DNA of 64,000 nucleotides from Patescibacteria group bacterium (GCA_022703645.1 JAKLDG010000001.1:573393-637392), one strand, 5' to 3'; shown: positions 1 through 39,227, numbered from the stretch's first letter. Numbers and translations: made by a program. The notes: generated by a model not told the origin, from the sequence alone.

Positions 1-3000
1 GAGCTGAGGTGGTAGTAGTGCTAGAAGCATCCACCACTACATTGGTATTTAATATTCCCTGATTGTCAGTCACATGAATAGTTGTGTTTGTAATGGAACT
101 CTGCGCAACCTTGGTTAACGCGGTAATCGCAATGACCGGCAGAGTGGTATCTATATTTATAGTCTTGAAATTATCAATGTTGCTATCAGCAGGTATCACC
201 GTACTGCTATCGGTATTTGGGTTTGTAATGTTATCTAATATAGTAGAAGAATTAATAGCCGAAACATTTATCGGCATTATATCTTCACCGCTCCCAATAG
301 CGCCAATAGTGTAAGTTGCCGCAATACTAGACCCTGAAACATTATTTAAAACCAAAGTCTTTCCGTTATTCAAGGTAATATTGAGTGAACTTCCGACTGC
401 TTTAATATTCTCATTGTAATTTGCGGTAATATTGACTGCCTGCCCAGCGCCATACGTACCATTGCTGGTAGTTGAAGTAATGTTTTGTAAAACCGGAGCT
501 GTGGTGTCTATCACGATATCCTTGCTATTGGCAATATTGTTTCCACCTGGAATTGATGGAGATGTATTGCTATTTGGGTTTTCAGCCGTTCTATCGGTAA
601 TAGTACCTGCAACACTGCTGACAGATAAGTCGCCTATATCTTGCCCGCTCCCGGTAGCTCCAACAGTATAAGTACCGCTATAAATAGTTTGATTATTTAC
701 CGCTCCTGTGTTAATAACTGCTCCGTTATTCAAAGTAATTGCTAAGCCTCCGACACTATTAACTGCCTCAGAGAAATTTAAAGTAATATTTATGCCAGCG
801 GTTGGACCGTAAGAACCATTTGTCGTTGTGGATGCCGCGCTGCTAATTGTCGGAGCGGTAGTATCTACTTTTATATCTTTGGAATTATTTATGTTTTGCC
901 CCGCATTGATTGTCGGATTGACAGTGGAATTATTGGATCCATCCGTTATAGTACCGGTAACTGTAGAAATTGATAAGTCATTTGTGTTTTGTCCGCTTCC
1001 CATTGCTCCTACTATATATATCCCGCTATAGCTGTTTTGATTTGTTAAAGCGCCGGTATTTATTACAGCGCCGGTATTTAAAGTAATCGCCAAACCAGCT
1101 GACGAAACTGTTTCATTGAAATTTAAAGTAATATTTATTTCCGATGTTGGACCGTAAGAACTGGTTGGAGTAGTAGAAGTAGCGCTGCTAATAATTGGCG
1201 CACCGGTATCAATAGTAAATGAAGTAATATTTATTGTATTGCTTTGATTGCCGGCAGCATCAGTAACTTTGAGAGTACAATTATTATGAGTACCAGCTCC
1301 TAAAGTATTAAAAGTAATGGTATTATTCCCTGATGTTGCGCTGCCTGTAGCAGACGAACAGTCCCCTCCATATGTAATAGTTCCATCCTCCGAAGAATTA
1401 AATGTGTAATCTGGAGTTGTATCATTGGTTGGAGTTGTTACGGGAGTTACTTGAGTGACGGTTGGATTAATATTATCTACTGTAAACGTTGCTCCGCTTG
1501 TTGGAGCAGAAGTTATAACATTACCAGATAAATCAGTACCGACTGATAAAGCAATGGTTGCGGTGCCATTTCCAGAACCAACTGTATGTATGTATGTATA
1601 ATGTGTGCTATCTACCTTTGTCATATCAGTTGCCGAAACAGTGTTTGATCCGGAGATAGCAATTTTTACAATTGGGCTATCTGCCATAGCTTCGGAGAAG
1701 GTTGCTGTGATGGTCAGAGAATCTCCCGCCTTTACAGATCCATCTGCATCCGAATACGTGATTGAAGCGGTTGGCGCAGAGGTATCTATGGTAAATGAAC
1801 TAACACCGAGGTTTGAACTTTGGTTGCCTACGGCATCGGTAACTTTTATCGTACAGTTACTATGAGTGCCTGCAGAAAGCGCATTAAATGTAACCGTATT
1901 ATTGCCTACTGTTGCGCTCGTTGTAGCTGAAATACAATCTCCGCCATAAGTAATAGTCCCGGCCTTGGTAGTATTAAATGTATAATCAGGAGTCGTATCA
2001 TTAGATGGAGTAACGACTGGGGTTACTTGAGTAACGACCGGAGCAGTAGTATCGATTGTAAAAGAATTAACATTAAGATTAGAACTTTGATTGCCGGCAG
2101 AGTCTGTAACTTTTATCGTACAATTGGAATGAGTTCCTGCAGAAAGTGTATTAAATGTTACCGTATTATTTCCAGCTGTCGCGCTGCCTGTAGCAGATGA
2201 ACAATCTCCTCCATATGTAATGGTGCCGGCTTCAGAAGTATTAAATGTATAATCTGGAGTCGTATCATTGGTTGGAGTTGTTACGGGAGTTACTTGAGTT
2301 ACGGTCGGAGCAGTGATATCTATATTAATATCATTAGCAGAAGCCAAAGTTGATTTATTTCCTACTGCATCTTCAGCGTATAAACAAATGTATTTGGTAT
2401 TATTCGCTTCGGTCGATTGATTCATACTATTGGCATCTGTCTTGGAATAATCGCCTGCCGTTGTTGAACAAGTACCATCAGCATCATAATCCCATTTTTT
2501 GACTGATGCATCACCCCAACCGGCTGTGATCGTATCGGACTGAATCGGTCCGGCCGCTACATTGTCTGAGAAAGAAAGAGAAGGGCCGGTAGTATCCAAA
2601 ATGAAATTCCCCATACTCGTCCAAGCAGACGTAGCTACTCCGTCATTATTCTGCGCGCACCAGTAATAGGTGGTATCTGAACCGATTGTTGAACCCGGTG
2701 TCCATGTAGTTGCTTCATTAATAGTTGCCGTTTCCCCAGATGTGCCGCTGGCAACAACTGAAGTGTTATTGAGACAATTCGCCGCACTGCCGGTTGCGAT
2801 ACGATAATTCGTCGTACCGGTATCATCCGTATCCGGATCTATATATTGAGCTGATAGAGTTGGTGTATTGTCAGCTGTCGTTGAGCCATTAGCAGGCGAA
2901 ACCAATGTTGGAACGCTTGGCGCTACGTTAACAGATTGACCGATTATGAAGTCACCAAATGCAGATAACCCGGTTGCTTGCGTGCTGGTAGAAGTTTTTG

Positions 3001-4537
3001 TACCAACAGTTGGGAGAGACCAGGTACCGGATTTTTCTCCAACTAAGAAACTATTCGTATCTGCCCCGCCGTCTATATCGCCTGCAGCATAATTAAAAGT
3101 TGCGCTATAATTATTAAATGCAATTCCGGAATTCACAAAAGTCCAATATCGGTTAACGCTTTTTGCTGAATTGATTCCTGAATTGGCAATGTCGGAATGA
3201 TCTCCATTTGTTGTACTAACCGTTAAGTCACCTGCTACAGTTACATTTCCAAAGGCGATTGTTACTGGAGCATAATTTGAATCACCGACATAAAAAGTCT
3301 TGCTGGTTGCGCCTGTCGCAATATATTTTTTAAAATTACCGATAATATAACCGGATGTTTGTGTCGTACTACCGGTTGAATTTACATAAATATTATTAGC
3401 CCCCGTCGTCACAGTTCCTTGGGCTAAATTAAGAGCCCCCCCTACAATCGTATTCCCGCCAAGCGCCACGCCAGATGCATTATTGATTTTCAACCCACCG
3501 TAAGTTAATGCGCTCACTGTCTGCGCGCTCGCCCCGGCATATTCTATAGTTAATCCGGAAATTGTATTGGTTGTAAATTTATATTGGCTGGAATAATCAG
3601 CCGTGGCAGCAGTTCGAGTTACTTGAACCGTACCGGAACCGGTAATGGTACCGGCAGCGCCGGCAGTATTGGCAACCACACCTGCATCTGCCGCAAAAGT
3701 CGCTCCTGAATCTACCTGCATCGTGCCACTAACATTGAAATTCGTACTAGCCGAAACTATATTTGAAGTATTGGAAATCGTTAAGTTATTAAAACTGGTC
3801 GCTGTTGAACCGCTAATATTCTGCGCTCCCGAACCGTTAAAAGTCACTGTACCGGAACGCTTGGTAAAGGTAGCATTATTAGTAAAATTCCCACCAACAT
3901 TTAAAGTGCGGTTGCTAGTAGTAACATCCAGTGTACCCGCTGAAATAAGAAGGTCGCCGGCAACTATAGTATTAACACTCAAACTATCTGTAAAACCGGT
4001 GCTGGCGATTGTTAAATTATTATAATTAGTAATTATTGCTGGCAGAGTCGTGTTGGCAGTATGAGCATATATGATAGTACCTGCCCCCGGTATAAAAGTT
4101 TGGTTTGTCGTTGTCCAAGAAGAACGGATTTTTAAATTACCACCATTAGTCATATCAATACTACTGCCCGCTACTGTAGATGAAACAGCTTTTACATTTA
4201 ATGTATGAGTACCACCAACCGGCCAGACCAGAGAACCGGCCATATTTTTACCTACAATCAACGCTCCATAAGCCAAGTCAGGATAAGCATCATCCACAAT
4301 AGCTTCACCATCAATTTGGAGAGTGTTCCCTGCAGCCGCTGCACCACTCCAACAATCCGTATCACTCATAAGACCGCTACAATTGGCGTTGCTTCTGGTA
4401 AATGTTTTACTCGCCGCTTCAACTGGTTTAGCATTATTATCGGCGAATAAAGTAATAAAAAAAGCGAGTACAAAAATACTCACTAACAGAACAGAAAGTA
4501 ATCCCTTTTTATTTTTGTTTCGAATAATTTTTTGCAT
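1..4537 (-). CDS. Giant repeat-rich cell-surface protein, N-terminal ~1512 codons (3' end beyond window start)
   Basis: Own minus-strand translation: ATG at 4535-4537 (MQKIIRNKNKKGLLSVLLVSIFVLAFFITLF, signal-anchor-like) stays open to position 1; spot-checked at 2599-2641 (GVATSAWTSMGNFIL). Missing from ORF track because no stop lies in window. T/S/N/G-rich Ig-like modules. Confidence 0.75.
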   Translation of the reverse strand, partial: MQKIIRNKNKKGLLSVLLVSIFVLAFFITLFADNNAKPVEAASKTFTRSNANCSGLMSDTDCWSGAAAAGNTLQIDGEAIVDDAYPDLAYGALIVGKNMAGSLVWPVGGTHTLNVKAVSSTVAGSSIDMTNGGNLKIRSSWTTTNQTFIPGAGTIIYAHTANTTLPAIITNYNNLTIASTGFTDSLSVNTIVAGDLLISAGTLDVTTSNRTLNVGGNFTNNATFTKRSGTVTFNGSGAQNISGSTATSFNNLTISNTSNIVSASTNFNVSGTMQVDSGATFAADAGVVANTAGAAGTITGSGTVQVTRTAATADYSSQYKFTTNTISGLTIEYAGASAQTVSALTYGGLKINNASGVALGGNTIVGGALNLAQGTVTTGANNIYVNSTGSTTQTSGYIIGNFKKYIATGATSKTFYVGDSNYAPVTIAFGNVTVAGDLTVSTTNGDHSDIANSGINSAKSVNRYWTFVNSGIAFNNYSATFNYAAGDIDGGADTNSFLVGEKSGTWSLPTVGTKTSTSTQATGLSAFGDFIIGQSVNVAPSVPTLVSPANGSTTADNTPTLSAQYIDPDTDDTGTTNYRIATGSAANCLNNTSVVASGTSGETATINEATTWTPGSTIGSDTTYYWCAQNNDGVATSAWTSMGNFILDTTGPSLSFSDNVAAGPIQSDTITAGWGDASVKKWDYDADGTCSTTAGDYSKTDANSMNQSTEANNTKYICLYAEDAVGNKSTLASANDINIDITAPTVTQVTPVTTPTNDTTPDYTFNTSEAGTITYGGDCSSATGSATAGNNTVTFNTLSAGTHSNCTIKVTDSAGNQSSNLNVNSFTIDTTAPVVTQVTPVVTPSNDTTPDYTFNTTKAGTITYGGDCISATTSATVGNNTVTFNALSAGTHSNCTIKVTDAVGNQSSNLGVSSFTIDTSAPTASITYSDADGSVKAGDSLTITATFSEAMADSPIVKIAISGSNTVSATDMTKVDSTHYTYIHTVGSGNGTATIALSVGTDLSGNVITSAPTSGATFTVDNINPTVTQVTPVTTPTNDTTPDYTFNSSEDGTITYGGDCSSATGSATSGNNTITFNTLGAGTHNNCTLKVTDAAGNQSNTINITSFTIDTGAPIISSATSTTPTSSYGPTSEINITLNFNETVSSAGLAITLNTGAVINTGALTNQNSYSGIYIVGAMGSGQNTNDLSISTVTGTITDGSNNSTVNPTINAGQNINNSKDIKVDTTAPTISSAASTTTNGSYGPTAGINITLNFSEAVNSVGGLAITLNNGAVINTGAVNNQTIYSGTYTVGATGSGQDIGDLSVSSVAGTITDRTAENPNSNTSPSIPGGNNIANSKDIVIDTTAPVLQNITSTTSNGTYGAGQAVNITANYNENIKAVGSSLNITLNNGKTLVLNNVSGSSIAATYTIGAIGSGEDIMPINVSAINSSTILDNITNPNTDSSTVIPADSNIDNFKTINIDTTLPVIAITALTKVAQSSITNTTIHVTDNQGILNTNVVVDASSTTTTSA
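140..1200 (-). repeat. Three tandem ~350-bp intragenic repeat units (~115-aa module) inside the giant surface gene
   Basis: Near-identical peptide modules in own translation (SYGPT..INITLNF.E.V...LAITLN.GAVINTGA...GSGQ..DLS.S.V.GTITD); boundaries approximate. Confidence 0.55.
1195..2320 (-). repeat. Three copies of a ~285-bp intragenic repeat (~95-aa module DTTAPTVTQVTPVTTPTNDTTPDYTFN...GGDCSSAT...CTIKVTD) at about 1195-1480, 1755-2040 and 2035-2320
   Basis: Near-identical nucleotide and peptide blocks seen in own translation; boundaries approximate. Confidence 0.6.
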
Positions 4538-4758
4538 TTCTCAGCTTTACTTTCTTTAGCAACTCCATCCTGATTTCATTTTAGCACCACTTCTAAATAT
4601 ACGCAAAGTCAAAAATATTGGCTAATAAAAGGGTTATTTTTGACGGTGGAAAAACATGATTTTTATTTATTGATAATTATTATCAAAAAACAGTGATTTT
4701 TAATAGCAAAACTGTGGATAAGTCGCATGTTTTTTTCTCGGTTAAAATCTCTTTTTTT

Positions 4759-4895
4759 GTCATCCTCGAGCACTGTTGTACTCAACAGTAAATCGGGGAT
4801 CCACAACATTAAGAAAATATTATATAGCTATTTATATTCTTGTTGAACTGGATCCCCGATTTCATGATGTGTACATCTATGAGCTCGAGGATGAC
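4759..4895. repeat. 137-bp inverted-repeat element: GTCATCCTC-N26-CGGGGATCC unit in both arms, each arm holding its own small hairpin
   Basis: gtcatcctcgagc (4759-4771) pairs with gctcgaggatgac (4883-4895); cggggatcc (4794-4802) with ggatccccg (4850-4858); partial second copy at 19713-19777. Confidence 0.6.
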
Positions 4896-4907
4896 AACGA
4901 AGAAGCG

Positions 4908-4975
4908 AGAACTTAATTGGAAATTTTAACATTGTTTCATTGATTGAAAATTGTAAATTGAGAATTGAAAATTTA
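4908..4975. repeat. Degenerate GAAAATT/GGAAATT heptamer-type simple repeat (intergenic)
   Basis: ggaaattttaac...gattgaaaattgtaaattgagaattgaaaattt; same motif family recurs at 7856, 10480, 23751, 50759 and 51033. Confidence 0.5.
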
Positions 4976-5025
4976 TTTTGTATATTATAACACTATTATA
5001 ACTTCAACAGATAAAATAATTTTAT

Positions 5026-5056
5026 AACAAAAAAGGACTCCGCTTTCGCGGAGCCC
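5026..5056 (-). terminator. Rho-independent terminator downstream of glyQS
   Basis: Minus-strand RNA GGGCUCCGC-GAAA-GCGGAGUCC followed by UUUUUUGUU; 20 nt after the stop. Confidence 0.7.
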
Positions 5057-5075
5057 TTAATTAATCAATTTTTAT

Positions 5076-6395
5076 TTATCCAAGTCTTTCCTTCAACCAA
5101 CCCTCCAATTCCTCGATCTTAACGATTTCCTGTTTCATCGTATCGCGGTCTCGCACAGTCACAGTACCCTTTTCCAGCGAATCAAAATCTACCGTCACGC
5201 AATACGGAGTTCCGATTTCGTCTTGATATCGATATCTCTTCCCAATATTTCCCCTATCATCCCAAAATACATTAAATTGTTTTTTCAAAGTTCCGTAAAC
5301 TTCTCGCGCCTTCTCAACTAACTCCGGTTTGTTTTTGAGAAGTGGAAATACTGCGACTTTGAACGGTGCTAATAATGGTTTGAGATGCAAAACAACCCGC
5401 GTCTCGCCATCTTCCATTTTTTCTTCTTCAAAAGCCTCGGATAATACCGCAAGCAATGTTCTATTAATACCAAATGTTGGTTCAAGTACATGAGGAATAT
5501 ATCTTTTACTATCCTCATCATCAAAATATTCCATATTCTCACCAGATGCTTTTTGATGATTGGAAAGATCGAAATCCGTGCGATATGCTATCGCCCATAG
5601 CTCATCCTGACCAAAAGGAAACTGATATTCCATATCGATAGTTCTCTTGGAATAAAAAGCGCGATCAGCTTCTGGAATTTCATGATTATACATTTTTTTT
5701 CGGTCAAGCCCCACAATATCCATAAACCCATACATATAATCAACCCATTCTTCAAAAATCTTGTTCCAATCACTGTCCGGCTTGATAAAATATTCTATCT
5801 CTCCCTGCTCAAATTCATAAGTTCGGAAAATAAAATTTCCCGTCGTTACTTCATTGCGAAAAGCCTTACCAATCTGGCCAATACCAAAAGGAATTTTCTT
5901 GTTCGTAGAATTTAAAACATTTTTATAATCCGCAAATATTGCCTGCGCTGTTTCAGGTCGCAGGTATGCGACTAATCCGTCTTCCTCTACTGGACCGATA
6001 ATGGTTTTAAACATTCCATTGAATCTTCTTTCTTCTGTAAATTCACCTCCGCAATCAGGACATTTGCTGGCGTCCTCTAATTTATCAGGGCGGAATCTTT
6101 TGTGACATTTCTTACATTCGACAAGAGGATCAGTAAAGTTTTCAACGTGAGTAGAAGCCTGCCAAATCTTTGGAGATAGAATTATTCCTCCATCGATTCC
6201 AGTCATATCTTCCCTATCCTGAACGAAATATTTCCACCAAGCATGTTTGATATTGTTATTCAGTTCAACCCCCATCGGACCGTAATCATAACTGGAAGCC
6301 AAACCACCATATATCTCAGAAGATGGAAACACAAATCCCCTTCTCTTACAAAGAGAAACTATTTTTTCCATCTTATCGTCTAATTCTTTTGCCAT
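5076..6395 (-). CDS. glyQS: Glycine--tRNA ligase (class II, alpha2 type)
   Basis: 439 aa; MAKELDDKMEKIVSLCKRRGFVFPSSEIYGGLASSYDYGPMG N-terminus and overall class II GlyRS pattern; ATG start confirmed in text. Confidence 0.93.
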   Translation of the reverse strand: MAKELDDKMEKIVSLCKRRGFVFPSSEIYGGLASSYDYGPMGVELNNNIKHAWWKYFVQDREDMTGIDGGIILSPKIWQASTHVENFTDPLVECKKCHKRFRPDKLEDASKCPDCGGEFTEERRFNGMFKTIIGPVEEDGLVAYLRPETAQAIFADYKNVLNSTNKKIPFGIGQIGKAFRNEVTTGNFIFRTYEFEQGEIEYFIKPDSDWNKIFEEWVDYMYGFMDIVGLDRKKMYNHEIPEADRAFYSKRTIDMEYQFPFGQDELWAIAYRTDFDLSNHQKASGENMEYFDDEDSKRYIPHVLEPTFGINRTLLAVLSEAFEEEKMEDGETRVVLHLKPLLAPFKVAVFPLLKNKPELVEKAREVYGTLKKQFNVFWDDRGNIGKRYRYQDEIGTPYCVTVDFDSLEKGTVTVRDRDTMKQEIVKIEELEGWLKERLG

Positions 6396-6449
6396 AAGTT
6401 TTATCTAATTATATTCGATACTTTATATTCTATATTATTTTGTATTTTT

Positions 6450-7193
6450 TTAAAACATCAAAAATTGCTTTGATTTTAGCTCTCTTCCGAGAACGTGTTC
6501 AAGAAAGAACGCGTTTATCCTTTTTGCTTCTTCTTGAATCTCCTTTTCCATAACTACTTTACCAATAAAACCAAAATCTTTTTCTACGATTAAGCGCATT
6601 AATTTTATCGCGTTTTGAGAAATTTTATTGGAATAAAGATCTTTGTCGCTGCATGTTTCGCAGAGTATTCCCCCTCTATCTTCGCTGAAATAAAATTTAT
6701 GCCCTGATATCTCATCGCGACATCCAACACAAACCAGAAATTCCGGTTTGAAGCCAAGATAAGACAAAACATTTAATTCAAAATATACGGTAAGCAAAAG
6801 CAGATTGGTTTCTTTCTTTTTTAATTCTTCAAGCAGAGAAAGGAAAAATGCAAAAGTGTTTTTATGTCTTACACCTTCCTCTAATATTTTGTCGAGTACC
6901 TCACAAAAATAGTAATAAACTCCAGTTCGATCAAAATCTTTTTTTATATCTTCGAAACTATCAATTATTTGAGCTCCAATCACAATATACATATTCTTTC
7001 CTTTTATCAATTCCAATTCGACAAGATTGAAAACCTCAAGATGCCCCGCCATTTTGGCAAGCGCTCTTTTCAATCCTTTTGCTTTAATCTGAATTTTACC
7101 AAGGTCTTGCGTGAAAACTGTGAGAATTTTATCCGCTTCAAAAAAATCTCTTTTGCCAATCACAATACCTTGGGTTTTATATGATTCATTCAT
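6450..7193 (-). CDS. recO: DNA repair protein RecO
   Basis: 247 aa; N-terminal OB-fold-like region and C..C...C..C zinc motif (CVGCRDE...CETCSDK) typical of RecO. Confidence 0.8.
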   Translation of the reverse strand: MNESYKTQGIVIGKRDFFEADKILTVFTQDLGKIQIKAKGLKRALAKMAGHLEVFNLVELELIKGKNMYIVIGAQIIDSFEDIKKDFDRTGVYYYFCEVLDKILEEGVRHKNTFAFFLSLLEELKKKETNLLLLTVYFELNVLSYLGFKPEFLVCVGCRDEISGHKFYFSEDRGGILCETCSDKDLYSNKISQNAIKLMRLIVEKDFGFIGKVVMEKEIQEEAKRINAFFLEHVLGRELKSKQFLMF

Positions 7194-7222
7194 GGAAAAC
7201 TTTATAATTTTCTACTTTATAA

Positions 7223-8134
7223 CTACTTTTGACATTTCGTACAGTAATGAGCACTGCGTTGGCCAATCCTGATCTTTTTCACCACTCCCCCACATTTTCC
7301 GCACCTTTGCTTTTCTTTTCGATAAACGAAACTATGTTCTTGATAATGGCCTTTAAGCCCAAATGCATCACGAAAATCTGACTCCGATGAACCGCGGTAC
7401 TTAATCGCTTTTTCGAGCACCGGACGAATAGATTTGTATATTTTAACCAATTCTTTTGTCTTTAAACTTTTTATCGTTCTATCCGGTCTTACCCCTGCGT
7501 AAAAAAGAATTTCATCGCCATAAATATTTCCAATCCCGGAAAACTTCGCTTGATCCATGAGAACAGACTTTATTTTACCTGTAGAACGACCTATTATGCT
7601 TTGGAACACATCAAAAGTAAATTTAGGGTCCAGTGGTTCCGGGCCGAGTTTGCTCTCAAGAGAAGAAAGATAATCGCGTTTTACGAGCCTCCATTCTCCA
7701 AACTTTCGCACATCCGAATAAGCTAAAATGTAGCCTCCTGAAAGTTCGAGAACGATATGAATATATTGATTCCTCGGATCCTGCAAAACCTCCGGCAAAT
7801 TCTCTCCTACCCATCTCCCCTTTTTTATATATTGTCGCGAAACGACTCTGCCATTGGAAATTGGAAATTGAGAATTGGAAATTATAATTATGTGTCCTGT
7901 CATTTTGAGATGAATCGTCAAAAGCATTTCTCCCGATAAAAAGATAATAATGTTCTTTGCTCTTCTTTCAACCTTCTCGATTTTCCTATTTTTTATCCTT
8001 TTTTTGAAATCAGCAAGCACCGCTCCTTTAATCAATTTTGGCGCATCGCAATACCTGAGGCCAATAATTGTCTTGCCCTTGATAGATTCATTTAGATCAT
8101 TTACAATAGTCTGCACCTCAGGTAATTCTGGCAT
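7223..8134 (-). CDS. mutM: Formamidopyrimidine-DNA glycosylase (Fpg/MutM; Nei not excluded)
   Basis: Starts MPELPEV (catalytic Pro2/Glu3); C-terminal zinc finger CGKCGG...HYCTKCQ; carries an in-frame heptamer-repeat insert. Confidence 0.88.
   Translation of the reverse strand: MPELPEVQTIVNDLNESIKGKTIIGLRYCDAPKLIKGAVLADFKKRIKNRKIEKVERRAKNIIIFLSGEMLLTIHLKMTGHIIIISNSQFPISNGRVVSRQYIKKGRWVGENLPEVLQDPRNQYIHIVLELSGGYILAYSDVRKFGEWRLVKRDYLSSLESKLGPEPLDPKFTFDVFQSIIGRSTGKIKSVLMDQAKFSGIGNIYGDEILFYAGVRPDRTIKSLKTKELVKIYKSIRPVLEKAIKYRGSSESDFRDAFGLKGHYQEHSFVYRKEKQRCGKCGGVVKKIRIGQRSAHYCTKCQK
7856..7883. repeat. GGAAATT-type heptamer tandem repeat (4 units) inside mutM coding sequence
   Basis: ggaaattggaaattgagaattggaaatt; encodes ISNSQFPIS on the minus strand. 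Confidence 0.6.
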
Positions 8135-8162
8135 ATATTAATTATAGCAGAAAAAAAACCAT

Positions 8163-8211
8163 AAGAAAATAAAACAGCGCGATCGCTCTTTATAAAAATT
8201 TGCGATCGCGC
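8163..8211 (-). terminator. Rho-independent terminator (GC-rich 10-bp stem containing GCGATCGC) after the 8212-8598 gene
   Basis: gcgcgatcgc-N15-gcgatcgcgc perfect inverted repeat (8177-8211), followed on the minus strand by UGUUUUAUUUUCUU. Confidence 0.7.
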
Positions 8212-8598
8212 CTAATTTGCGCCCTCTTTGTTAAATGTATCTTGCGATGTCTCCCACTGTTCAATATTGGGATTAATCACAGTAGGCCCAGAAGCAGGAA
8301 AATTCACTCTGCTGATTTTCCTGACTTCAATCGATTCCGGATCCAATCTTATGTAGAGCCCCATTTTTTTGCAGAGCGGAACTTCTTTTTTTGCCAGACG
8401 TATTATCGCCTGCCTTTTTGCTTCAATAGCATTGAAGTCCTCGCCCCGCATTTTTACAATATATTCCCTCTTTTTTTCAACAGAGGGAATTGTGAGACCT
8501 GGATCTTCATAAGTCTCAAAAATGCAGAGGATTTTCCACTTTACAAAAGTTACCGGTCCTCTGTCTTTCAAGGAAATTACGTTATCATAAGAATCCAA
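8212..8598 (-). CDS. Hypothetical protein
   Basis: Track ORF 8212-8607 (GTG); likelier TTG start at 8598, 6 nt after GGGAGGTG. Real terminator and promoter flank it; the opposite-strand ORF 8200-8631 looks like a shadow. Confidence 0.5.
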   Translation of the reverse strand: MDSYDNVISLKDRGPVTFVKWKILCIFETYEDPGLTIPSVEKKREYIVKMRGEDFNAIEAKRQAIIRLAKKEVPLCKKMGLYIRLDPESIEVRKISRVNFPASGPTVINPNIEQWETSQDTFNKEGAN

Positions 8599-8660
8599 GT
8601 ATCTCACCTCCCTCGAATTTATCTATTTTAACGAACATGCCATAATGGCAATGTACATAA

Positions 8661-8689
8661 AGAATACCACATACAATTATGTATGTCAA
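8661..8689 (-). promoter_or_regulatory. Sigma70-like promoter (-35 TTGACA, 17-nt spacer, -10 TATTCT) with palindrome ACATACA-ATTA-TGTATGT overlapping spacer and -35
   Basis: Minus-strand reading of 8661-8689: ttgacatacataattgtatgtggtattct; about 60 nt upstream of the 8598 start. Confidence 0.5.
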
Positions 8690-8739
8690 GCATTTTCACA
8701 ATTATACTAGTTCAGATAGTATTTTACGCTATTTTTATT

Positions 8740-9147
8740 TTATATCTTGCCTATTTCTGATTTCACTTCAACTGCAGGTTCCGCTGCAACTTCTTGTTTT
8801 ATCTCAGCCACAACCTCTTTATTTGGCTCTTGAATTTCAGGAATACTTGGGGCTTGCGGTGCAGGAGAAGTTTCATCTTTTATTTCTACCTGTGGCGGTA
8901 ATTCTATTTTTTCTGGTTCCGGAGATAAAGCCTGAGTCGTATCTGGCGCAGATAAAGTTTCAATTCCTTTTTCTAATTTTACCTTTTCCGCTTCAATTTC
9001 AAGCTCGGGTATAGTATCAATGTCTTTAATTTTTTCTGCTGTAATTTTATTTTCCATCCATTCATCATGCACTTCCTTTTCATCTTTTACTAATTTCTCT
9101 TCCTCTGGAGGGATTATCGGTTGTACTGGATTTGTTTGATCTGTCAT
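8740..9147 (-). CDS. Hypothetical acidic low-complexity protein (E/K/P-rich)
   Basis: 135-aa ORF in operon orientation with neighbours; no family recognised. Confidence 0.4.
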   Translation of the reverse strand: MTDQTNPVQPIIPPEEEKLVKDEKEVHDEWMENKITAEKIKDIDTIPELEIEAEKVKLEKGIETLSAPDTTQALSPEPEKIELPPQVEIKDETSPAPQAPSIPEIQEPNKEVVAEIKQEVAAEPAVEVKSEIGKI

Positions 9148-9173
9148 ATTTTTTTAATTATTATTATAAGTTT

Positions 9174-9863
9174 CTAAGCTGCCATCTTTTTTTCTTTAAT
9201 GAGCAACACCTCGTTATATTTTGATTTTATTTTTTCCCCATATTTACTAAATATCTCGTTTAAGTCTTCGGATGACGGTATTTCTTCAGTTCTAGAATTT
9301 GGTAATACTTTCTCTACGCCATCTTTTTTTTGATTAACAAAGCTTGTTACGGTTATAGCGTCAATGTTACCGCGATATTTTGGATTTAAAAATATTTTTT
9401 TTGCTTCTACTTTCTTGGAAACACCGTCAATTTTCTCTGAAACAGAAGTTATAATTTTATTTTTTATTTCTTCCAGCAAAAGCCTATCATTTGCATCACC
9501 ACTTCTTTTTATCGTAAACTTAACCTCGTATCCGTTCTCATTTGGAACGGAAAAAGTAATCTGGCTTCCCCCATTGCGTTTTAGTAATTCATCCATAACA
9601 CCGTAAATTTGATCCCCAATTTTCTTTAAACCATCGAGGTATCTTGAATAACTTTTATCATAGCTTCCTAAAGAATTAGTTGATTCTGATAATGTATCGA
9701 TTTTATCATCAAAATTTTGAATCATTTCGGATCTTTCATTAAAGTCTTTTGGTTCAGCAACCTCAACTGAATGAAATTTGAAAGTCGCGGGTTGCGCTAA
9801 AATGGTGTCTATATTAGGTTTTTTTTCTGAACTATTATATTCTTCTCTATAGTTTATGGGCAT
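9174..9863 (-). CDS. Hypothetical protein
   Basis: 229-aa ORF, same strand and tight spacing with flanking genes; no motif recognised. Confidence 0.5.
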   Translation of the reverse strand: MPINYREEYNSSEKKPNIDTILAQPATFKFHSVEVAEPKDFNERSEMIQNFDDKIDTLSESTNSLGSYDKSYSRYLDGLKKIGDQIYGVMDELLKRNGGSQITFSVPNENGYEVKFTIKRSGDANDRLLLEEIKNKIITSVSEKIDGVSKKVEAKKIFLNPKYRGNIDAITVTSFVNQKKDGVEKVLPNSRTEEIPSSEDLNEIFSKYGEKIKSKYNEVLLIKEKKMAA

Positions 9864-9884
9864 ATCGAATTATTTACTTATATT

Positions 9885-10475
9885 CTAAATAAATTTCTTT
9901 AAAACTTGCGCGTCTTCAATTAAAACTTTCTTCATATTAGGATTATACGTCGCAACAGCCGGATGGTAAAGTGAAACTATCTTTACTGGGTAACTAAATG
10001 AAGGCGAATCAAAAGTCTGGCCATGAATTTTGCTAATTCCAACCAATTTATCGCCTAATCCAAATTGCTCAAAAATGAATCCTGCTGCGTGATTCCCCAT
10101 CGCGCAAATTATTTTAGGCTGAATAATCTCAATCTGCCTTTTCAAATAATCAACACATGCTAGTTTTTCCATTGGATTCGGATCGCGGTTGCCCGGCGGT
10201 CGGCATTTTAGGACGTTGCAAATATAAACATTTTCTCTTTTTAATCCGACTGATTCAATAACTTCATCCAAAATTTTCCCCGCTCTTCCGCAAAAAGGAA
10301 CTCCTGTAGCGTCTTCGTTTGCGCCGGGAGCTTCACCAACAAACATAATATGCGCGTCGTGATTCCCCACTCCGACAACTGGCAATGTTCGCGTTGCAAA
10401 AAGAGGACATTTCGTGCAGGCAACAACTTCGTCTTTAATTTTTTTAAGTTGTTCCGTTTTATTTTGAATATTCAT
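9885..10475 (-). CDS. Uracil-DNA glycosylase, family 4 (Fe-S type)
   Basis: VACTKCPL...FVGEAPG...FCGRAG...CNVLKCRPPGNR...LYHPA: family-4 UDG motifs. Confidence 0.85.
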   Translation of the reverse strand: MNIQNKTEQLKKIKDEVVACTKCPLFATRTLPVVGVGNHDAHIMFVGEAPGANEDATGVPFCGRAGKILDEVIESVGLKRENVYICNVLKCRPPGNRDPNPMEKLACVDYLKRQIEIIQPKIICAMGNHAAGFIFEQFGLGDKLVGISKIHGQTFDSPSFSYPVKIVSLYHPAVATYNPNMKKVLIEDAQVLKKFI

Positions 10476-10479
10476 TCTA

Positions 10480-10636
10480 TCTATTTTATTTATTTTAAAT
10501 AATTTTGTAATTTTTAATTTTTGAATTTTGTAAATAATTTATTAAATCTTAATTTTTAAATTCTCTTCGAAGATATTCTGTTTAAAAATTTGAAAATTAG
10601 AATTTATTTAAAAATTAAAAATTGCAAAATTAAAAA
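10480..10636. repeat. Intergenic AT-rich simple-repeat tract of the AAAATT/GAAAATT family
   Basis: tttgaattttgtaaat...tttgaaaattagaatttatttaaaaattaaaaattgcaaaattaaaaatt. Confidence 0.45.
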
Positions 10637-11263
10637 TTATCTTTTCAAAATTTCAGGAACCGGGATTCCCGCATATTCTTTTAATAAACCTTTTCCATAA
10701 ACAAGACGTGAGAAACATTCCGCTTCAAGCTTCGCGTCTTCAAGCGCGTTGTGCTCTTTCCTGTTGTCAATCATTCCACAAAGTTCGAGTGTTTTAGATA
10801 GTCCAAAATCCGAATGCCCGTTTTTAAATAAAAAATCTTTTTTTAAATCAAAGTATTTTAAATGCGCCACAGTATACAGATCCATACATCGATAAGAAAA
10901 AGGCAGACTCAATCCATATTTATCAGCCTTTGTTTTCATAAAAGCATAATCGAATTGAGGATTTTGACAAATCAGATCTTTTTCTTCGATTTCACTCACC
11001 CATTGAAAAAAATGTTCCAAAAGTTCCTTTTCACTTTGAGCGTTTTTATTCTTCATTTGTTCTTCACCTATTCCCAATAAATCCGTAACACTTTTTGAAT
11101 CCAGCATATTATCCGAATTTACAATAGTATATTCGTCCCCCAGTTTTGCGTCTTGCAAAAAAGTGTTGCCTGGATTTTTAATATCAATAGCGCCAATCTG
11201 AATTATTCCACACTTATTATAATCAACCCCGCTCGTTTCGATATCTACAACTATCATACACAT
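10637..11263 (-). CDS. DnaQ-like 3'-5' exonuclease (DEDDh family)
   Basis: Exo I VVDIETSG, Exo II NPQFDYAF, Exo III HNALEDAKL. Confidence 0.8.
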   Translation of the reverse strand: MCMIVVDIETSGVDYNKCGIIQIGAIDIKNPGNTFLQDAKLGDEYTIVNSDNMLDSKSVTDLLGIGEEQMKNKNAQSEKELLEHFFQWVSEIEEKDLICQNPQFDYAFMKTKADKYGLSLPFSYRCMDLYTVAHLKYFDLKKDFLFKNGHSDFGLSKTLELCGMIDNRKEHNALEDAKLEAECFSRLVYGKGLLKEYAGIPVPEILKR

Positions 11264-11309
11264 TCTCCCATTCGCGAAAATTAGTCTTAATTCGAAATAA
11301 TTCGCGATT

Positions 11310-11795
11310 TTATTTTTTAAAAAGAAGCCAGCTATCTCTATTTGCTGAAAAATTAGTTTTTATCATTACGTAATCCCCTTTCAGCTTTTTTCCAGAAAGC
11401 GTGAATTCCAAAATTTTAATTTTCTTTCTTTCAAACTCCATTTTCATTTTTGAAAACTTTCCACTATCCCAAATCTTAACAGTTCCCGCGCCATAATTTC
11501 CTTCCGGAATATTTCCTTCAAAGTCAATATATTCCACCGGATGATCTTCGGTGGCAACTGCGAGATGTTTGATTCCCACTTCAGTCGGAACACCTTTTGG
11601 CACTGCCCAAGATTTGAGGACGATTGAACCGCTCCTCCACTCTTCCGGTAATTCCAAGCGAAAATCGTAGTGCAGATTTCTTGCATGATGTTCTTGTACA
11701 ACAAATCTATTCTTGCCTTTTACAATATCAATCTTCCCCTGCGGTTCAGTGGTTTTTTTGAAACTTCTTTTTTTGTGATATTTTTCGAGTGCCAT
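11310..11795 (-). CDS. Stand-alone LigD-type 3'-phosphoesterase domain protein
   Basis: RFVVQEHHARNLHYDFRLE and LEKYHKKRSFKKTTEP match the LigD PE hallmark; track start is TTG at 11813, likelier ATG at 11793-11795 (MALEKY). Confidence 0.78.
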   Translation of the reverse strand: MALEKYHKKRSFKKTTEPQGKIDIVKGKNRFVVQEHHARNLHYDFRLELPEEWRSGSIVLKSWAVPKGVPTEVGIKHLAVATEDHPVEYIDFEGNIPEGNYGAGTVKIWDSGKFSKMKMEFERKKIKILEFTLSGKKLKGDYVMIKTNFSANRDSWLLFKK

Positions 11796-11842
11796 AAAAA
11801 AATTATACCACAAATTTTTGCAAATAAAAAAATAGGTTCAAT

Positions 11843-11952
<110 letters not shown>

Positions 11953-12029
11953 ACTGAATCTATTTCTTATTTTTTTAATCAAGTAAAACTATATCTTTTT
12001 GAAAATTAATTTAATGCTCTAAATGTTGC

Positions 12030-15231
<3,202 letters not shown>

Positions 15232-15724
15232 AATTTGCAACATTCAAAGCACTAACTGCTTAATATTGCTAACCTTGTTAATCTTCATGTTAGTTACATA
15301 TATTTTTACTCGATTTTCACATAGAATACTGTCGGCTGATCAAAATCAGATACGATATTCTATATGAATATATTATTAACGTTCGCTAGACAATCTCCTC
15401 TTGCTTTACTTTGCTAGCTTTATATCTCGTTTTCCAACAAGTTATCGAGCCAACAAACTAATCCCTAAAAATAAAAAATACCGCTCTATAAGCGGCTTTC
15501 TTCACACAAAGAAAACTTTTTTCTCACTTCCGCTTATATATTTTTTGATTGTAGTTTTTTAGAAACATTTATTTTTAGGCTAAAATATAATTATTTTTAC
15601 CTGTAAAAGCTATTTTATATCAATTATTGACCGCGGTCAACAACATTTTTTATCAGGTTAAAAATATGTTATTACTATTACTTTTAAAAATAACATATTA
15701 TATACTATTTGTCAATACACTTAA

Positions 15725-18408: not shown

Positions 18409-19686
18409 CTAAAATCTTTTTCTCCCCCCGCTATGATAAATAACATTTGCAATACCAAAAATTACCACGAATGAAGATATCGAAAAAAGAACTGCTTTAA
18501 TATGAAATCGGTCTGCAATGTATCCAATAATAAGAACTGGGAGCATATTCACTACATTTGTGATCATATTTAGAAACCCAAAAACTCTACCCATCATCCC
18601 CTTCTCTGTGTTCTCCTGCAAAATCGTCTGAGAAGGAGCAATAATTGCCATCGCCCCAAAGCCAACCATTGCAAGCAACACCGCAATTATACCTGTTTTG
18701 AAAAAAGTGTGAATGTAATCATATGTATCAGGAGAATTTTTGAAAATAACTTCTCGAACCTCTGGAATCAGAGAAATTACCATAGCAGAAAAACCAACAA
18801 GGAATATTCCAAAACTGATAATATGTTTTTTTGCTGTCTTTTTTGAAAGGTAGTCTACCACTAGTACCCCTCCGGCAGTACCAATTACTGCTGGCAGCAC
18901 CACCATTCTACCTGCATCTGCAGTAGGAATATGTAGGATCTCATTAGTTAATGGCGGTACTAAAACATAAGCTACTCCAAAAGCAATCCAGATAAAAACA
19001 AGATATATTATCGGCATATAAACCCCAGCGGTATTTTTTATTAAATGCCAACCTGATAAAAAGTCCTTTTTCAAACCATCAAAAAGCAGCTCTTTTGTAA
19101 CATGCTTAATTTTTGGTTTATCATAGGGCAGAAAAAACAAAATAATCGCCGATAATAAGAATCCAATCGATATTATCACAAATTGATTATACCCATGCAC
19201 ATATTGAATAGCGCTAACAAGAGAAAAACCAAATATCATCGCACCATAATTGGTAGATATATATAGAGAATTCGCTGCGAGATAATCATTTTGATGTACT
19301 ATCGCCGGTATTCTTGCTGCCTCGGATGGCAAGAAAAACTGCATTGCGCTGCTAATCATAAATGTAAGAATATAAACAAACCATAGATTAAATCCAACAA
19401 AAATAAAACCAAGAGCCAAAACAGCACGCAAAAAATTTACCGTATACATGATTTTCTTCTGAGAAAAACGGTCAGCCAGAACCCCCGCATAAATACTAAA
19501 TAGAACAGAAGGCACAGTAAAACAAAGTATGAGAATGCTTACTTTGAGATTTGAACCTGTTATATCATATACCTTAACAACGAGAAGAAAGTTTAGAAGA
19601 TTATTTGCCGTCTGTGAAAAAATCTGAGCTATCCAGATTTTCAGAAAATTTTTATTCTTGAATACATTCGCGAATCCACTCAACAT
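18409..19686 (-). CDS. MFS-family transporter
   Basis: 425 aa, about 12 hydrophobic segments, MFS-like organisation. Confidence 0.8.
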   Translation of the reverse strand: MLSGFANVFKNKNFLKIWIAQIFSQTANNLLNFLLVVKVYDITGSNLKVSILILCFTVPSVLFSIYAGVLADRFSQKKIMYTVNFLRAVLALGFIFVGFNLWFVYILTFMISSAMQFFLPSEAARIPAIVHQNDYLAANSLYISTNYGAMIFGFSLVSAIQYVHGYNQFVIISIGFLLSAIILFFLPYDKPKIKHVTKELLFDGLKKDFLSGWHLIKNTAGVYMPIIYLVFIWIAFGVAYVLVPPLTNEILHIPTADAGRMVVLPAVIGTAGGVLVVDYLSKKTAKKHIISFGIFLVGFSAMVISLIPEVREVIFKNSPDTYDYIHTFFKTGIIAVLLAMVGFGAMAIIAPSQTILQENTEKGMMGRVFGFLNMITNVVNMLPVLIIGYIADRFHIKAVLFSISSFVVIFGIANVIYHSGGRKRF

Positions 19687-19712
19687 ATTTGTTTTTATTT
19701 AATATTAATGTT

Positions 19713-19777
19713 GTCATCCTCAAACACTGAAGTAGTAGAGAGTTGTTCGGGGATCCAGTTCAACAAGACTATAAATA
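19713..19777. repeat. Solo copy of the GTCATCCTC-N26-CGGGGATCC unit (same family as 4759-4895)
   Basis: gtcatcctc...cggggatccagttcaacaaga.tataaata; the 21-mer cggggatccagttcaacaaga is identical to the right arm of the 4759-4895 element in reverse complement. Confidence 0.6.
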
Positions 19778-19784
19778 ATACTCT

Positions 19785-20384
19785 TTATTTCTTCACTATC
19801 TTATCAATTATTCCATATTTAATTGCTTCTTCGGGATTCATAAAGAAATCTCTATCTGTATCTTTTTCTATCTTTGATAATGGCTGCTTGGTATCGCGCG
19901 CCAAAGTTTCATTAATCATTTTTTTAATTCTCAAAATTTCCTTTGTTTGAATCTCGATATCGGTCGCCTGCCCTTCGGATCCACCCATTACTTGGTGGAT
20001 CATTATCCTACTATTTGGCAAAGCGAATCTTTTTCCGCGAGCTCCACCAGCCAAAAGTACTGCAGCGGCAGATGCAGCTTGACCTATACATATAGTAGAG
20101 ACATCGGGCTTCACATATTGCATGGTGTCATAAATAGCCATTCCAGCAGTTACCGCTCCACCCGGAGAATTTATATATAATTGTATATCTTTTTTACTAT
20201 CTTCGCCAGAGAGAAAAAGCAATTGAGCAATTACAAGATTTGCCACATCATCATTGATTGGCGAACCAAGAAATATGATGCGATCTTTTAGTAGTCGCGA
20301 AAATATATCATAAGCTCTCTCATATCCGGCTTTTTGCTCTACTACCATTGGAACTAATGTTGAATTTTTTGTGTTATTTAGCAT
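19785..20384 (-). CDS. clpP: ATP-dependent Clp protease proteolytic subunit
   Basis: 199 aa; [17 protein letters not shown] (Ser), MIHQ (His) motifs. Confidence 0.95.
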
Positions 20385-31490: not shown

Positions 31491-32057
31491 TTAAAGTTGG
31501 ATAGTAATGCTCTCATCCTCATTTTTAGTCACTTTATGCTCTCTTTTCTTGGGACCAAACAACTCTATGTTTTCTTTGATCATAAAAACATAATAATAAG
31601 GGCTACTTTCTGCGGTAGGCACAATCCTTGCATTTAGTTTGCCTTCCCTAATCATCTTTTTCGCAGTAGCTGTCCTTATTTTAAAATAATGATCAAGCTC
31701 CCACATAGCATACCAACTATCCTTATCTTTGCACGCTTTAGATGGGACTATTTTCTGATCAACTGCTTTTTGGCACAATAAGCACTTAATACCGTTTTTA
31801 TCATACCAACTCGACTCTCCCTCAACATAGGTACCGCAAATACAACAGGAGTATTTGCCACCCTCCATATGGAACCCTTTCGGATTATCTTTTAATTTTA
31901 ATTTACGAAAATGCTCTTTCTTGGCAACATCAAACAAAATCTTATAGAATTCATGCAATCGCCATGATGCGTCAGAAGCCTCTTCCCATGTTAGCTTCTT
32001 GCCATATTCTTTTTCGTAGATTTCTTGAAATTCTTTTATTGCTTCGTCTGATAACAT
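31491..32057 (-). CDS. Hypothetical Cys-containing protein (last gene of candidate defence operon)
   Basis: 188 aa; SCCICG...CLLCQ cysteine pairs; 22 bp downstream of the 801-aa gene. Confidence 0.5.
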   Translation of the reverse strand: MLSDEAIKEFQEIYEKEYGKKLTWEEASDASWRLHEFYKILFDVAKKEHFRKLKLKDNPKGFHMEGGKYSCCICGTYVEGESSWYDKNGIKCLLCQKAVDQKIVPSKACKDKDSWYAMWELDHYFKIRTATAKKMIREGKLNARIVPTAESSPYYYVFMIKENIELFGPKKREHKVTKNEDESITIQL

Positions 32058-32079
32058 AATTTTATGTATTACTTTAAAC

Positions 32080-34485: not shown

Positions 34486-34499
34486 ATTCCTTATTTTAC

Positions 34500-35192
34500 C
34501 TATATTCTAGCTTTTATGTGATTGCCACCATTATCATAATTTAGAGATTCAGCAAGACCGCATGCATTCCATATGAGATCGAAAAGTGGCCTCAAAATAG
34601 TTTCCGGTTTCTCATCGTAAGAATTTATTATAATACCCGGCAGATCCAGATTATCCCTATCAATGGGTGCACCATCATAAGAAGAATACGCTGGACCAGT
34701 GGCCATGCCACAACCACCAACGCCAATAAGAGTTAAAAATATCATCATGGGCATATTTACGCCTAGATCTTTTAGAATTTTCAAATATTCCGTTAAAGAA
34801 TCTATCAATACGTTTTCAAGTGCCAAGCCTTTGATTGTTTTGCCTTCTCTACATGATGCCAAGGACAGACAATCTACTGCCTCTACAATTCCATTCCTAT
34901 AAAGTTGAACATATGAGGCTGTCTTATTGATATCATTCCCGCCACAAGCGAGAACCCCATCTACATTTATTCGACTGATATCGGGTCCTCCATGTATCGG
35001 ACTAATAGATACTGTGCGATCAAATAAAGTGCTCAAATCCAAACTGTACTCATAGTCAAGCGTGCCCAGAGGAATCAAATGTAAAATTATTCTGTTTTCG
35101 TATGATAACGAGACTGGCCTTTCATCTGAAACTATTTTCCGCACCATCTCTTTTTTTATACCGTCTATCTTTTCTATTTCACTTTGCTCCAT
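34500..35192 (-). CDS. Hypothetical protein (operon partner)
   Basis: 230-aa ORF, 14-bp gaps to both neighbours; no family recognised. Confidence 0.5.
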   Translation of the reverse strand: MEQSEIEKIDGIKKEMVRKIVSDERPVSLSYENRIILHLIPLGTLDYEYSLDLSTLFDRTVSISPIHGGPDISRINVDGVLACGGNDINKTASYVQLYRNGIVEAVDCLSLASCREGKTIKGLALENVLIDSLTEYLKILKDLGVNMPMMIFLTLIGVGGCGMATGPAYSSYDGAPIDRDNLDLPGIIINSYDEKPETILRPLFDLIWNACGLAESLNYDNGGNHIKARI

Positions 35193-35206
35193 TTATTTCT
35201 CCATTT

Positions 35207-35434
35207 CTAATTCATTAATTTTCCTATCGCATTAAACCATTCTTGCTCTAATTTTCTTACTTCTTCACGCATTTCTTCCAATTTATTAAGAGATTCAATG
35301 GTTAATACTTTCTCCGGCATTTTTTGTTTCTCGCCTTCCCATGAAATCGCCACAAATTTATCTCTATAATCTGCTAATTCATTTTCCGCTTTGACATATC
35401 GATTTGTAAGGTCATTAAATTCTTCTTGATTCAT
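35207..35434 (-). CDS. Small charged, coiled-coil-like protein (first gene of operon)
   Basis: 75 aa, E/K/R-rich heptad-like sequence; ATG at 35432-35434. Confidence 0.45.
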   Translation of the reverse strand: MNQEEFNDLTNRYVKAENELADYRDKFVAISWEGEKQKMPEKVLTIESLNKLEEMREEVRKLEQEWFNAIGKLMN

Positions 35435-35465
35435 ATTTTTTATTCTTCCTAAAATTAGTTTTATT

Positions 35466-35499
35466 TAAGGGTTGGGATCAATTGACCCCAACCCTTTAT
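35466..35499. terminator. Hairpin, terminator-like (aagggttggg-N-cccaaccctt)
   Basis: Near-perfect inverted repeat 35466-35497 with a T-run on the plus strand; 8 nt beyond the DUF1508 stop. Confidence 0.45.
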
Positions 35500-35506
35500 T
35501 TTTCTC

Positions 35507-35674
35507 CTATGCAACCGGGGCTTTCAGCGCATTGCTCCTAACCCATGCCACTGAGTTGATTGCGCCTTGTTCGCTGTCATATTCTTCGGACCAACAAACA
35601 ATCCTATTATTACCAGCGATTAATCGCCAGTAAAATAGTCCTCGACTACTTTTGCGGATTTCAAATTTTACCAT
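35507..35674 (-). CDS. DUF1508 (YegP-like) small protein, 55 aa; absent from ORF track
   Basis: Own translation MVKFEIRKSSRGLFYWRLIAGNNRIVCWSEEYDSEQGAINSVAWVRSNALKAPVA*; AGAGGTG SD-like sequence 4 nt upstream of the ATG. Confidence 0.6.
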   Translation of the reverse strand: MVKFEIRKSSRGLFYWRLIAGNNRIVCWSEEYDSEQGAINSVAWVRSNALKAPVA

Positions 35675-35838
35675 TTGACACCTCTTAAACTTGCCTTAAT
35701 TAACCACAGAGGATATAATAAATATAACCTCTGTGGCCTGTGGATATTTAAAATATCGACACGGTTTTTACAAGAAACCATTTAAACCACAGATTGGTAT
35801 ATAACTCAAAAAATCAGGCTTGCCTGATTTTTTGTTTC

Positions 35839-37599: not shown

Positions 37600-37600
37600 A

Positions 37601-38644: not shown

Positions 38645-38653
38645 ATAATATTT

Positions 38654-39210: not shown

Positions 39211-39227
39211 AACAGTGAATACTAATT

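Follow-up and report, generated by a model that had tools for sequence, protein, structure and literature searches.

The question raised by this locus is what kind of element lies between two genes of a Patescibacteria group bacterium in the form of an inverted repeat, and recurs as a single copy about 15 kb away. The DNA considered here (referred to below as the window) is the whole stretch of 64,000 nucleotides, GCA_022703645.1 JAKLDG010000001.1:573393-637392. The original prediction proposed a small non-autonomous mobile element, a family of structured regulatory RNAs, or a family of binding sites. We believe that the last of these comes closest to the mark: judging by their architecture, the copies look like the single-stranded DNA hairpins targeted by GIY-YIG endonucleases of the Ssn family. 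They belong to a real and very widespread family of repeats, present in this Patescibacteria genome in a long-stem form; elements of this kind have been described before, and no new class is involved.

The presence of a repeated unit in both arms of the inverted repeat, with a third copy elsewhere, is borne out. The pattern GTCATCCTC-N(20-40)-CGGGGATCC has exactly three matches in the 64-kb window, at 4759-4802 (+), 4850-4895 (-) and 19713-19756 (+), and none in 100 dinucleotide-preserving shuffles, i.e., three matches are found against zero expected. The conserved ends, TTGTCATCCTC and TCGGGGATCCA (three exact copies each), are slightly longer than first given, and the whole unit has the form TTGTC-ATCCTC…CGGGGAT-CCA, where the hyphens mark the limits of the palindrome. 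Such units occupy 4757-4803 (+, unit A), 4849-4897 (-, unit B) and 19711-19757 (+, unit C). The base after the conserved ATCCA is G in units B and C (CCAG) and C in unit A (CCAC). A variable part of 26 nt was predicted; this is its length in units A and C, while in unit B it is 28 nt.

The "inverted repeat" consists of two units placed tail-to-tail, a BIME/REPIN-like doublet of 141 bp (4757-4897), the outer 15-nt arms of which (4757-4771 and 4883-4897) are 100% complementary. Its left arm, unit A, is an SRM-like hairpin (the term is introduced below) with exact pattern matches, TTGTC-ATCCTCGA-GC-ACTGTTG-TACT-CAACAGT-AAA-TCGGGGAT-CCA; the right arm, unit B, has a different inner stem, which is self-complementary as well (CATAGATG-TACA-CATCATG). 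The AT-rich spacer of 45 nt between them (4804-4848) is made of the overlapping 3' tails of the two units (…AGTTCAACAAGAATATAAATAGC… in the minus-strand reading). The solo copy is a single unit with the same tail of about 25 nt (GTTCAACAAGACTATAAATAATACTCT, 19758-19784, +). The 21-mer CGGGGATCCAGTTCAACAAGA, said to be shared by the right arm (in reverse complement) and the solo copy, is indeed found at 4838-4858 (-) and 19748-19768 (+), with zero occurrences expected by chance. A metagenome match to this 21-mer (L124) was discarded as a coincidence in a coding region of a GC-rich organism. Unit C is partly decayed: an A replaces the near-invariant G after CCTC, and the inner stem is weak.

A small hairpin had been proposed in the variable part of each arm. 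Hairpins are present there in units A and B, but the structure is larger, since each whole unit forms a hairpin with the outer stem ATCCTCGA/TCGGGGAT around a variable inner stem. Folded as RNA, unit A has a minimum free energy (MFE) of -21.1 kcal/mol (z = -5.6) and unit B one of -18.9 kcal/mol (z = -3.7); for DNA the values are -12.1 (z = -5.4) and -8.5 kcal/mol (z = -2.5), respectively. Folded as RNA, the strand that reads GTCAT is more stable than its complement (-21.1 vs -18.6 kcal/mol in A, -18.9 vs -15.7 kcal/mol in B) because of a conserved T·G (G·U) pair. The folding of unit C is no better than that of shuffled sequences (z = -0.2 as RNA and +1.2 as DNA); unstable and without the near-invariant G, this unit fits a decaying half-element. 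The full doublet is predicted to be able to form one long branched hairpin as single-stranded DNA (ssDNA) on either strand, with an MFE of -45 kcal/mol (z = -13).

Both loci are intergenic, as stated in the original prediction; their neighbour genes, described there as convergent, are in fact co-directional on the minus strand. The first locus lies between the stop of glyQS (5076), followed by its terminator (5033-5058), and the start (about 4537) of a giant minus-strand ORF. This ORF (1-4537) exceeds 1513 aa, leaves the window at its left end and starts 219 nt downstream of the doublet; an N-terminal hydrophobic segment can be seen in it. A second giant ORF of 2888 aa is found at 53829-62495 (+). 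At the second locus, unit C and its tail lie within the gap of 98 nt that separates the stop of clpP from the start of a gene for an MFS transporter. A scan for terminators gave matches at 5033-5058 and 4463-4484 only; neither the units nor the region 19600-19900 yielded any. Since neither a terminator nor a promoter was detected at the clpP-MFS junction, unit C is probably inside a clpP-MFS co-transcript.

Two further readings of the first locus were tried and rejected. The doublet spacer contains a promoter-like sequence, TCAACA-16-TATAAT (minus strand, 4846..4819, directed towards the giant ORF), which is a 10/12 consensus match only; the region has 29% GC, such matches are common in it, and the solo copies have no promoter by eye, so that a promoter borne by the doublet was not retained. 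Just to the left of the doublet there is a DnaA-box-like sequence, TGTGGATAA (4713-4721), again a consensus match only. Together with a sign change of the GC skew near 3-5 kb, it led us to consider a replication terminus, a dif site or an origin; the idea was dropped, as the position of the skew change is also that of the giant ORF, the third copy lies 15 kb off, and the element occurs at many positions in many genomes.

Some other features of the window deserve a record. A full-length LOOT RNA (RF03000; 96.6 bits vs a gathering score of 46.4) is found at 40030-40150 (-), at the point of divergence of a minus-strand and a plus-strand gene block, inside an island (about 31500-46400) that resembles a defence island or a prophage remnant. 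On the minus strand, the island encodes a GmrSD_N+HNH nuclease (36511-37608) and an EcoRI-type adenine methyltransferase (37604-38653); on the plus strand there are a fusion of ParB_N with an N6/N4 methylase (40954-42339), a terminase-like protein (42693-44180) and a large serine recombinase (44315-45718). Pfam gave no match for several ORFs next to these. The rRNA operon has the order 16S, two tRNAs, 23S, 5S, and its 23S rRNA gene (12031-15233, -) is about 3.2 kb long vs a model of 2925 nt, with several insertions in the cmscan alignment, e.g., a block of 77 nt.

In comparison with relatives, the element behaves like inserted DNA. The clpP-MFS gene pair is kept in related genomes; the spacer between the two genes is 8 nt in one of them (L126, ClpP 90% identical) and 15 nt in another (L129/L130, ClpP 87% identical) vs 98 nt in the window, and the segment of about 75 nt missing from the orthologous spacers is unit C with its 3' tail. 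A third relative (L127, ClpP 84% identical) has an unrelated hairpin, CCCTCC…ACTGGCAA…TTGCCAGT…GGAAGGG, in the same spacer (6598-6682), and the junction seems to collect hairpin insertions. The whole doublet is found in a metagenome contig (L123:21-161), where it is 93.7% identical to 4757-4897. There the homology ends exactly at the TTGTCATCC ends; the flanks are non-homologous, with an unrelated ABC-permease gene downstream. Between the two doublets the inner stem shows a compensatory change (TGTTG/CAACA to TGATG/CATCA), and the contig also holds a solo unit, which carries the AGTTCAACAAGAATATAAATAGC tail too, so that this tail is common to solo copies in the window and in the contig. One copy at least was inserted recently. 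The corresponding comparison for the first locus is uninformative because the closest GlyRS relative (83% identity) has a different downstream synteny (mraZ). Target-site duplications, which the original prediction proposed to look for, are lacking both at the doublet and at the solo unit, and this holds for L123 as well as for the window.

To see how far the family reaches, one genome per bacterial species (596 Gb) was scanned with the exact pattern TGTCATCCTC-N(20-40)-CGGGGATCCA, which gave at least 120 loci; by our own estimate, chance alone would give about 20. The loci listed belong to Patescibacteria (at least 25), Nitrospirales, Alpha- and Gammaproteobacteria, Rickettsiales, Holosporaceae, Babeliales, Bdellovibrionales, Sulfurovum and others, and 131 homologous units from them, 117 of which are distinct, were used in the further tests. 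Among these matches, the G after CCTC is present in 109 of the 117 distinct units and pairs with a fixed C. The first stem pair that the pattern leaves free forms in 96% of the 117 distinct units vs 47% with shuffled partners, and its identity varies (AT 43, GC 34, CG 24 and TA 4 among the distinct units listed). In a 46-sequence alignment (A1), this pair shows 24 double changes and one unpaired cell, and the observed covariation score is reached in none of 500 shuffles. Covariance across copies, the analysis of which was proposed in the original prediction, is present at the free stem pair, and a dispersed family with conserved ends and a variable core that conserves structure is supported. 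The base following ATCCA is G in 66% of 116 units listed.

An inverted SRM-type partner at most 100 nt downstream, in the tail-to-tail arrangement, accompanies 56 of the 131 units listed (43%), while an upstream partner accompanies three. The spacers of the doublets among the listed units range from 1 to 68 nt, and the spacer of 45 nt in the window is therefore typical. The partner matches the published SRM pattern in 19 units listed (e.g., TGTCATTCCCGCGAAGGCGGGAATCCAG) vs one in the upstream control, and among the units listed one doublet partner is an exact NTS. Loci with a canonical SRM partner include Saccharibacteria, Berkelbacteria, Microgenomates and Peribacteria. Since long-form and canonical units occur as partners in doublets, they are interchangeable halves of the same composite. 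The units avoid genes: 28% of those listed are inside ORFs of at least 120 aa, though such ORFs cover 83% of the loci. Their orientation shows no bias relative to the strand of local genes in the listed loci (66 vs 53 for all units, 39 vs 30 for solo units), nor relative to the GC skew, so that exposure of ssDNA linked to replication leaves no detectable signature.

Two observations made in the course of this survey can be added. The 10 nt upstream of the TGTCAT head (loci L001-L120) are poor in G (7-16% vs a background of 23%) and rich in pyrimidines, C and T together making up about 80% of positions -1 and -2; this composition may reflect a preference for the insertion site or for the cleavage site. 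A contig classed as viral (L133, IMG/VR UViG_3300037245_002917) has 15 SRM-type units in its 14.7 kb (at 3094-12300), mostly short forms such as GTCATCCTCGCGAAAGCGGGGATCC and all in the same orientation; an SsnA-like ORF was not detected in this contig.

The known system with which the units are best compared is the NTS (Neisseria Transformation Sequence), CGTCATTCCCGCGMAVGCGGGAATCYRG, which Chenal et al. (Nat Commun 2025; PMC11893778) generalised as the "Ssn-related motif" (SRM). Its nuclease, SsnA, is a 94-aa single-domain GIY-YIG protein (cd10448) that binds the NTS hairpin as ssDNA only and on one strand only, does not bind RNA, and cuts a few nucleotides upstream of the hairpin (PMC11893778). 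Cleavage is controlled by GTC, the 3 nt directly before the palindrome, and the base most crucial for binding is the C directly after it; the identity of the loop is irrelevant, an extended loop is tolerated, and the stem can be lengthened artificially (PMC11893778). The system was described in 2025, and a biological role is known for it only in Neisseria, in which transforming ssDNA that contains the NTS is restricted; the SsnA of Wolbachia cuts that organism's own SRMs (PMC11893778).

The window units agree with this description in several respects. GTC precedes the palindrome in all three (TTGTC-ATCC…). The AT(T/C)CC…GG(G/A)AT hairpin lies on the GTCAT strand, where units A and B are predicted to form ATCCTCG/CGGGGAT stems both as RNA and as DNA, unit C being marginal. 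The palindrome is followed by C and then by YRG, or (C/T)(A/G)G, the transition being GGGGAT-CCAG in B and C; unit A departs from this in its last base (GGGGAT-CCAC). The content of the loop is free, as in the NTS. The units are multicopy and mainly intergenic (three units at two intergenic loci in 64 kb, with more copies in L123), and a gene for a GIY-YIG protein of about 95 aa is near units of this type in other genomes, at five of the 120 loci listed. The published degenerate search pattern, HGTCWYN(0-2)YYVSBRHN(0-5)WNVSBRGN(0-2)RNCYNB (PMC11893778), has no match in the window. It misses the window units because it allows only a short loop; the definition given in prose, inverted repeats of 20-50 nt (PMC11893778), covers them. 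The differences from the NTS are as follows: the palindrome in the window is 38-40 nt, with a variable and mostly self-complementary insertion of 20-40 nt, vs about 20 nt in the NTS; the stem includes a T·G pair; the host, a Patescibacteria bacterium, has a small genome; there is a lineage-specific AT-rich 3' tail of about 25 nt; and no ssnA gene is seen in the 64 kb.

Two other known elements are close in form. The dRS3/NIME repeat of Neisseria (ATTCCC-N8-GGGAAT) belongs to the same family of core palindromes, dRS3 being the palindromic core of the NTS (PMC11893778). Unlike the window units, it is defined without oriented flanks. It is known as a phage recombinase target, and nothing of that kind was seen for the window units. 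The search of the whole window against Rfam at gathering thresholds, and of 4600-5100 under permissive settings, gave no family at threshold for the units; matches below threshold were to precursor families of plant and animal miRNAs and to WsnRNA46 of Wolbachia (RF02625). The latter is the closest bacterial look-alike, at 25.9 bits (-) and 22.5 bits (+) vs a gathering score of 65.3. Its consensus of about 150 nt is tail-to-tail like the window doublet (GuCaucc…GGgauCcaG / CugGauuCC…ggauGaC), whereas its inner sequence is unrelated; it was described as an RNA, while the evidence considered here points to an element at the DNA level.

The genes near the units were compared by all-against-all clustering of 5218 ORFs from the at least 120 loci listed. 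The only genuine gene family shared across distant taxa in the 120 loci listed is that of a GIY-YIG protein of about 95 aa, present at five of them (Phycisphaerae, two Gammaproteobacteria, Babeliales and Alphaproteobacteria). Its form is YxVYIL…LYIGVT…R…H…GFT…REKxLKKWNR, and it matches Pfam PF01541. At four of the five loci a unit is found within about 210 bp of the gene, and L095 has one unit on either side of it. Among the best 120 homologues listed, most bear the annotation "putative endonuclease" or "GIY-YIG nuclease family protein", and a Neisseriaceae MAG is the source of one. No homologue of ssnA or other GIY-YIG gene was found in the 64-kb window (by motif, tblastn and HMM), no ssnA homologue in the fetched flanks of the relatives, and no GIY-YIG gene at the 25 listed Patescibacteria unit loci (8-kb blocks).

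We consider it likely that the three units are repetitive extragenic hairpins of the NTS/SRM type, in a long-stem variant with a freely varying and mostly self-complementary loop insertion of 20-40 nt, that the hairpin base is the Ssn determinant, and that the doublet is the unit that is copied or inserted. When the DNA becomes single-stranded (in replication, in repair or as incoming transforming DNA), the strand reading GTCAT would fold into the hairpin. Small ssDNA endonucleases of the Ssn family, with a single GIY-YIG domain, would recognise its base, GTC-ATCCTCG…CGGGGAT-C, as their determinant; once bound to the hairpin, they would cut a few nucleotides to its 5' side. The tail-to-tail arrangement would give the 141-bp doublet one cleavable hairpin per strand, with predicted cuts at the two outer ends; these borders are where the homology between independent insertions ends. 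Solo units, each with its tail, would then be decaying half-elements of the doublet. We presume that the copies in the window are recognised by a nuclease of the Ssn type that is encoded elsewhere in the genome or acted formerly. Several results speak against the explanation: no GIY-YIG gene was found in the 64 kb, in the flanks of the relatives or at the 25 listed Patescibacteria loci, the published pattern misses all three units, unit A ends in CCAC, unit C is unstable as a hairpin, and no orientation bias relative to the GC skew is seen. We know of no covalent strand-transfer intermediates of GIY-YIG nucleases, and a transposition mechanism is thus unproven.

An alternative is a role at the level of RNA, the units being small RNAs or cis-acting hairpins (stabilisers, attenuators or processing sites) in the glyQS/giant-gene and clpP/MFS transcripts; such roles have been shown for some REPs. 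In its favour, the hairpins are stable as RNA, the GTCAT strand folds better than its complement through the T·G (G·U) pair, a Wolbachia doublet of analogous structure has been registered as an sRNA (though the match to WsnRNA46 is weak), and unit C is inside the probable clpP-MFS co-transcript. We nevertheless find this explanation improbable: the orientation of the units listed is random relative to the gene strand, units in both orientations adjoin minus-strand genes in the window, and relatives lack the element at the same clpP-MFS junction. The conserved bases, moreover, are at the hairpin base and in the single-stranded flanks, i.e., where a DNA-binding nuclease reads, and SsnA leaves RNA unbound. 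With random orientation, no Rfam family at the gathering score and a homologous system acting on ssDNA, the structured regulatory RNA of the original prediction is not supported, and nothing speaks for a strand-specific role at the RNA level. The likeness to REP, BIME and REPIN elements raises another alternative, namely, that the units are moved by a RAYT (REP-associated tyrosine transposase of the IS200/IS605 Y1 family) and not by a GIY-YIG nuclease. They share with these elements the short extragenic hairpins and the intergenic bias, the presumed recognition as ssDNA, and the absence of target-site duplications typical of IS200/IS605; the analogy is noted in the Ssn paper itself (PMC11893778). 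An inverted doublet that replicates as a unit and folds into one long hairpin, with decaying singlets such as the degenerate unit C, is the defining picture of a REPIN. The head that typifies RAYT-associated REPs is GTAG or GTGG, whereas the conserved head found here is TGTC. No family resembling a Y1 or any other transposase recurs among the ORFs of the 120 loci listed, where related loci carry GIY-YIG and not HUH/Y1 genes, and no Y1 gene is apparent among the large ORFs of the window, ten of which were scanned against Pfam. Mobilisation by a RAYT thus appears quite unlikely to us.

A classical MITE, i.e., a deletion derivative of a DDE-transposase insertion sequence (IS) moved in trans, would account for an element of 141 bp with perfect 15-bp terminal inverted repeats, an AT-rich interior, and presence/absence polymorphism in different contexts. 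Its "terminal repeats", however, are complete units that fold independently, occur singly, and are found in other genomes beside other partner units. These ends are also conserved in many phyla, while a MITE normally depends on an IS specific to its lineage. We reject a MITE of the DDE type, leaving it a very small probability, because there is no target-site duplication (no direct repeat at either locus, in the window or in L123) and no parent IS, none bounded by TTGTCATCC…GGATGACAA having been seen. What stands of the small non-autonomous mobile element proposed originally is that it behaves like inserted DNA (the empty clpP-MFS site in relatives and the same doublet between unrelated flanks in L123); the classical MITE, with neither target-site duplication nor a related transposase, does not stand. 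The location of both loci in AT-rich intergenic DNA downstream of genes would also suit chance palindromes or ordinary intrinsic terminators. Against chance, there are three matches where none is expected, and the 21-mer occurs twice where none is expected; against terminators, no T-run follows the hairpins, and the true terminator of glyQS is a separate hairpin (5033-5058). With hundreds of homologous covarying copies elsewhere, the probability of this explanation is negligible.

There is one more reading, which concerns the function of the element. The long-stem SRM doublets of Patescibacteria could be "orphan" replicators that have no resident ssnA and are mobilised or read by another enzyme, or they could serve as self-marks on DNA imported by competence; these reduced bacteria depend on the competence machinery. 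We regard this as unlikely; if true, it would make the doublets a separate functional system, sharing only the hairpin with the Ssn family.

We therefore return to the hairpins of the NTS/SRM type as the best explanation. What is new is a naturally loop-extended form of the NTS/SRM hairpin, found in Patescibacteria and in many other phyla, together with the observation that tail-to-tail doublets are its usual architecture and that long-form and canonical units are interchangeable within them. In annotation, such elements should not be taken by default for MITEs or sRNAs. In this Patescibacteria bacterium, the copies may have spread by an Ssn-dependent route and may affect the uptake of ssDNA or, as in Neisseria, restrict or pattern the recombination of ssDNA that enters the cell. 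The reach of the family is extended, and the units offer natural substrates for testing how far Ssn enzymes tolerate the extension of the stem.
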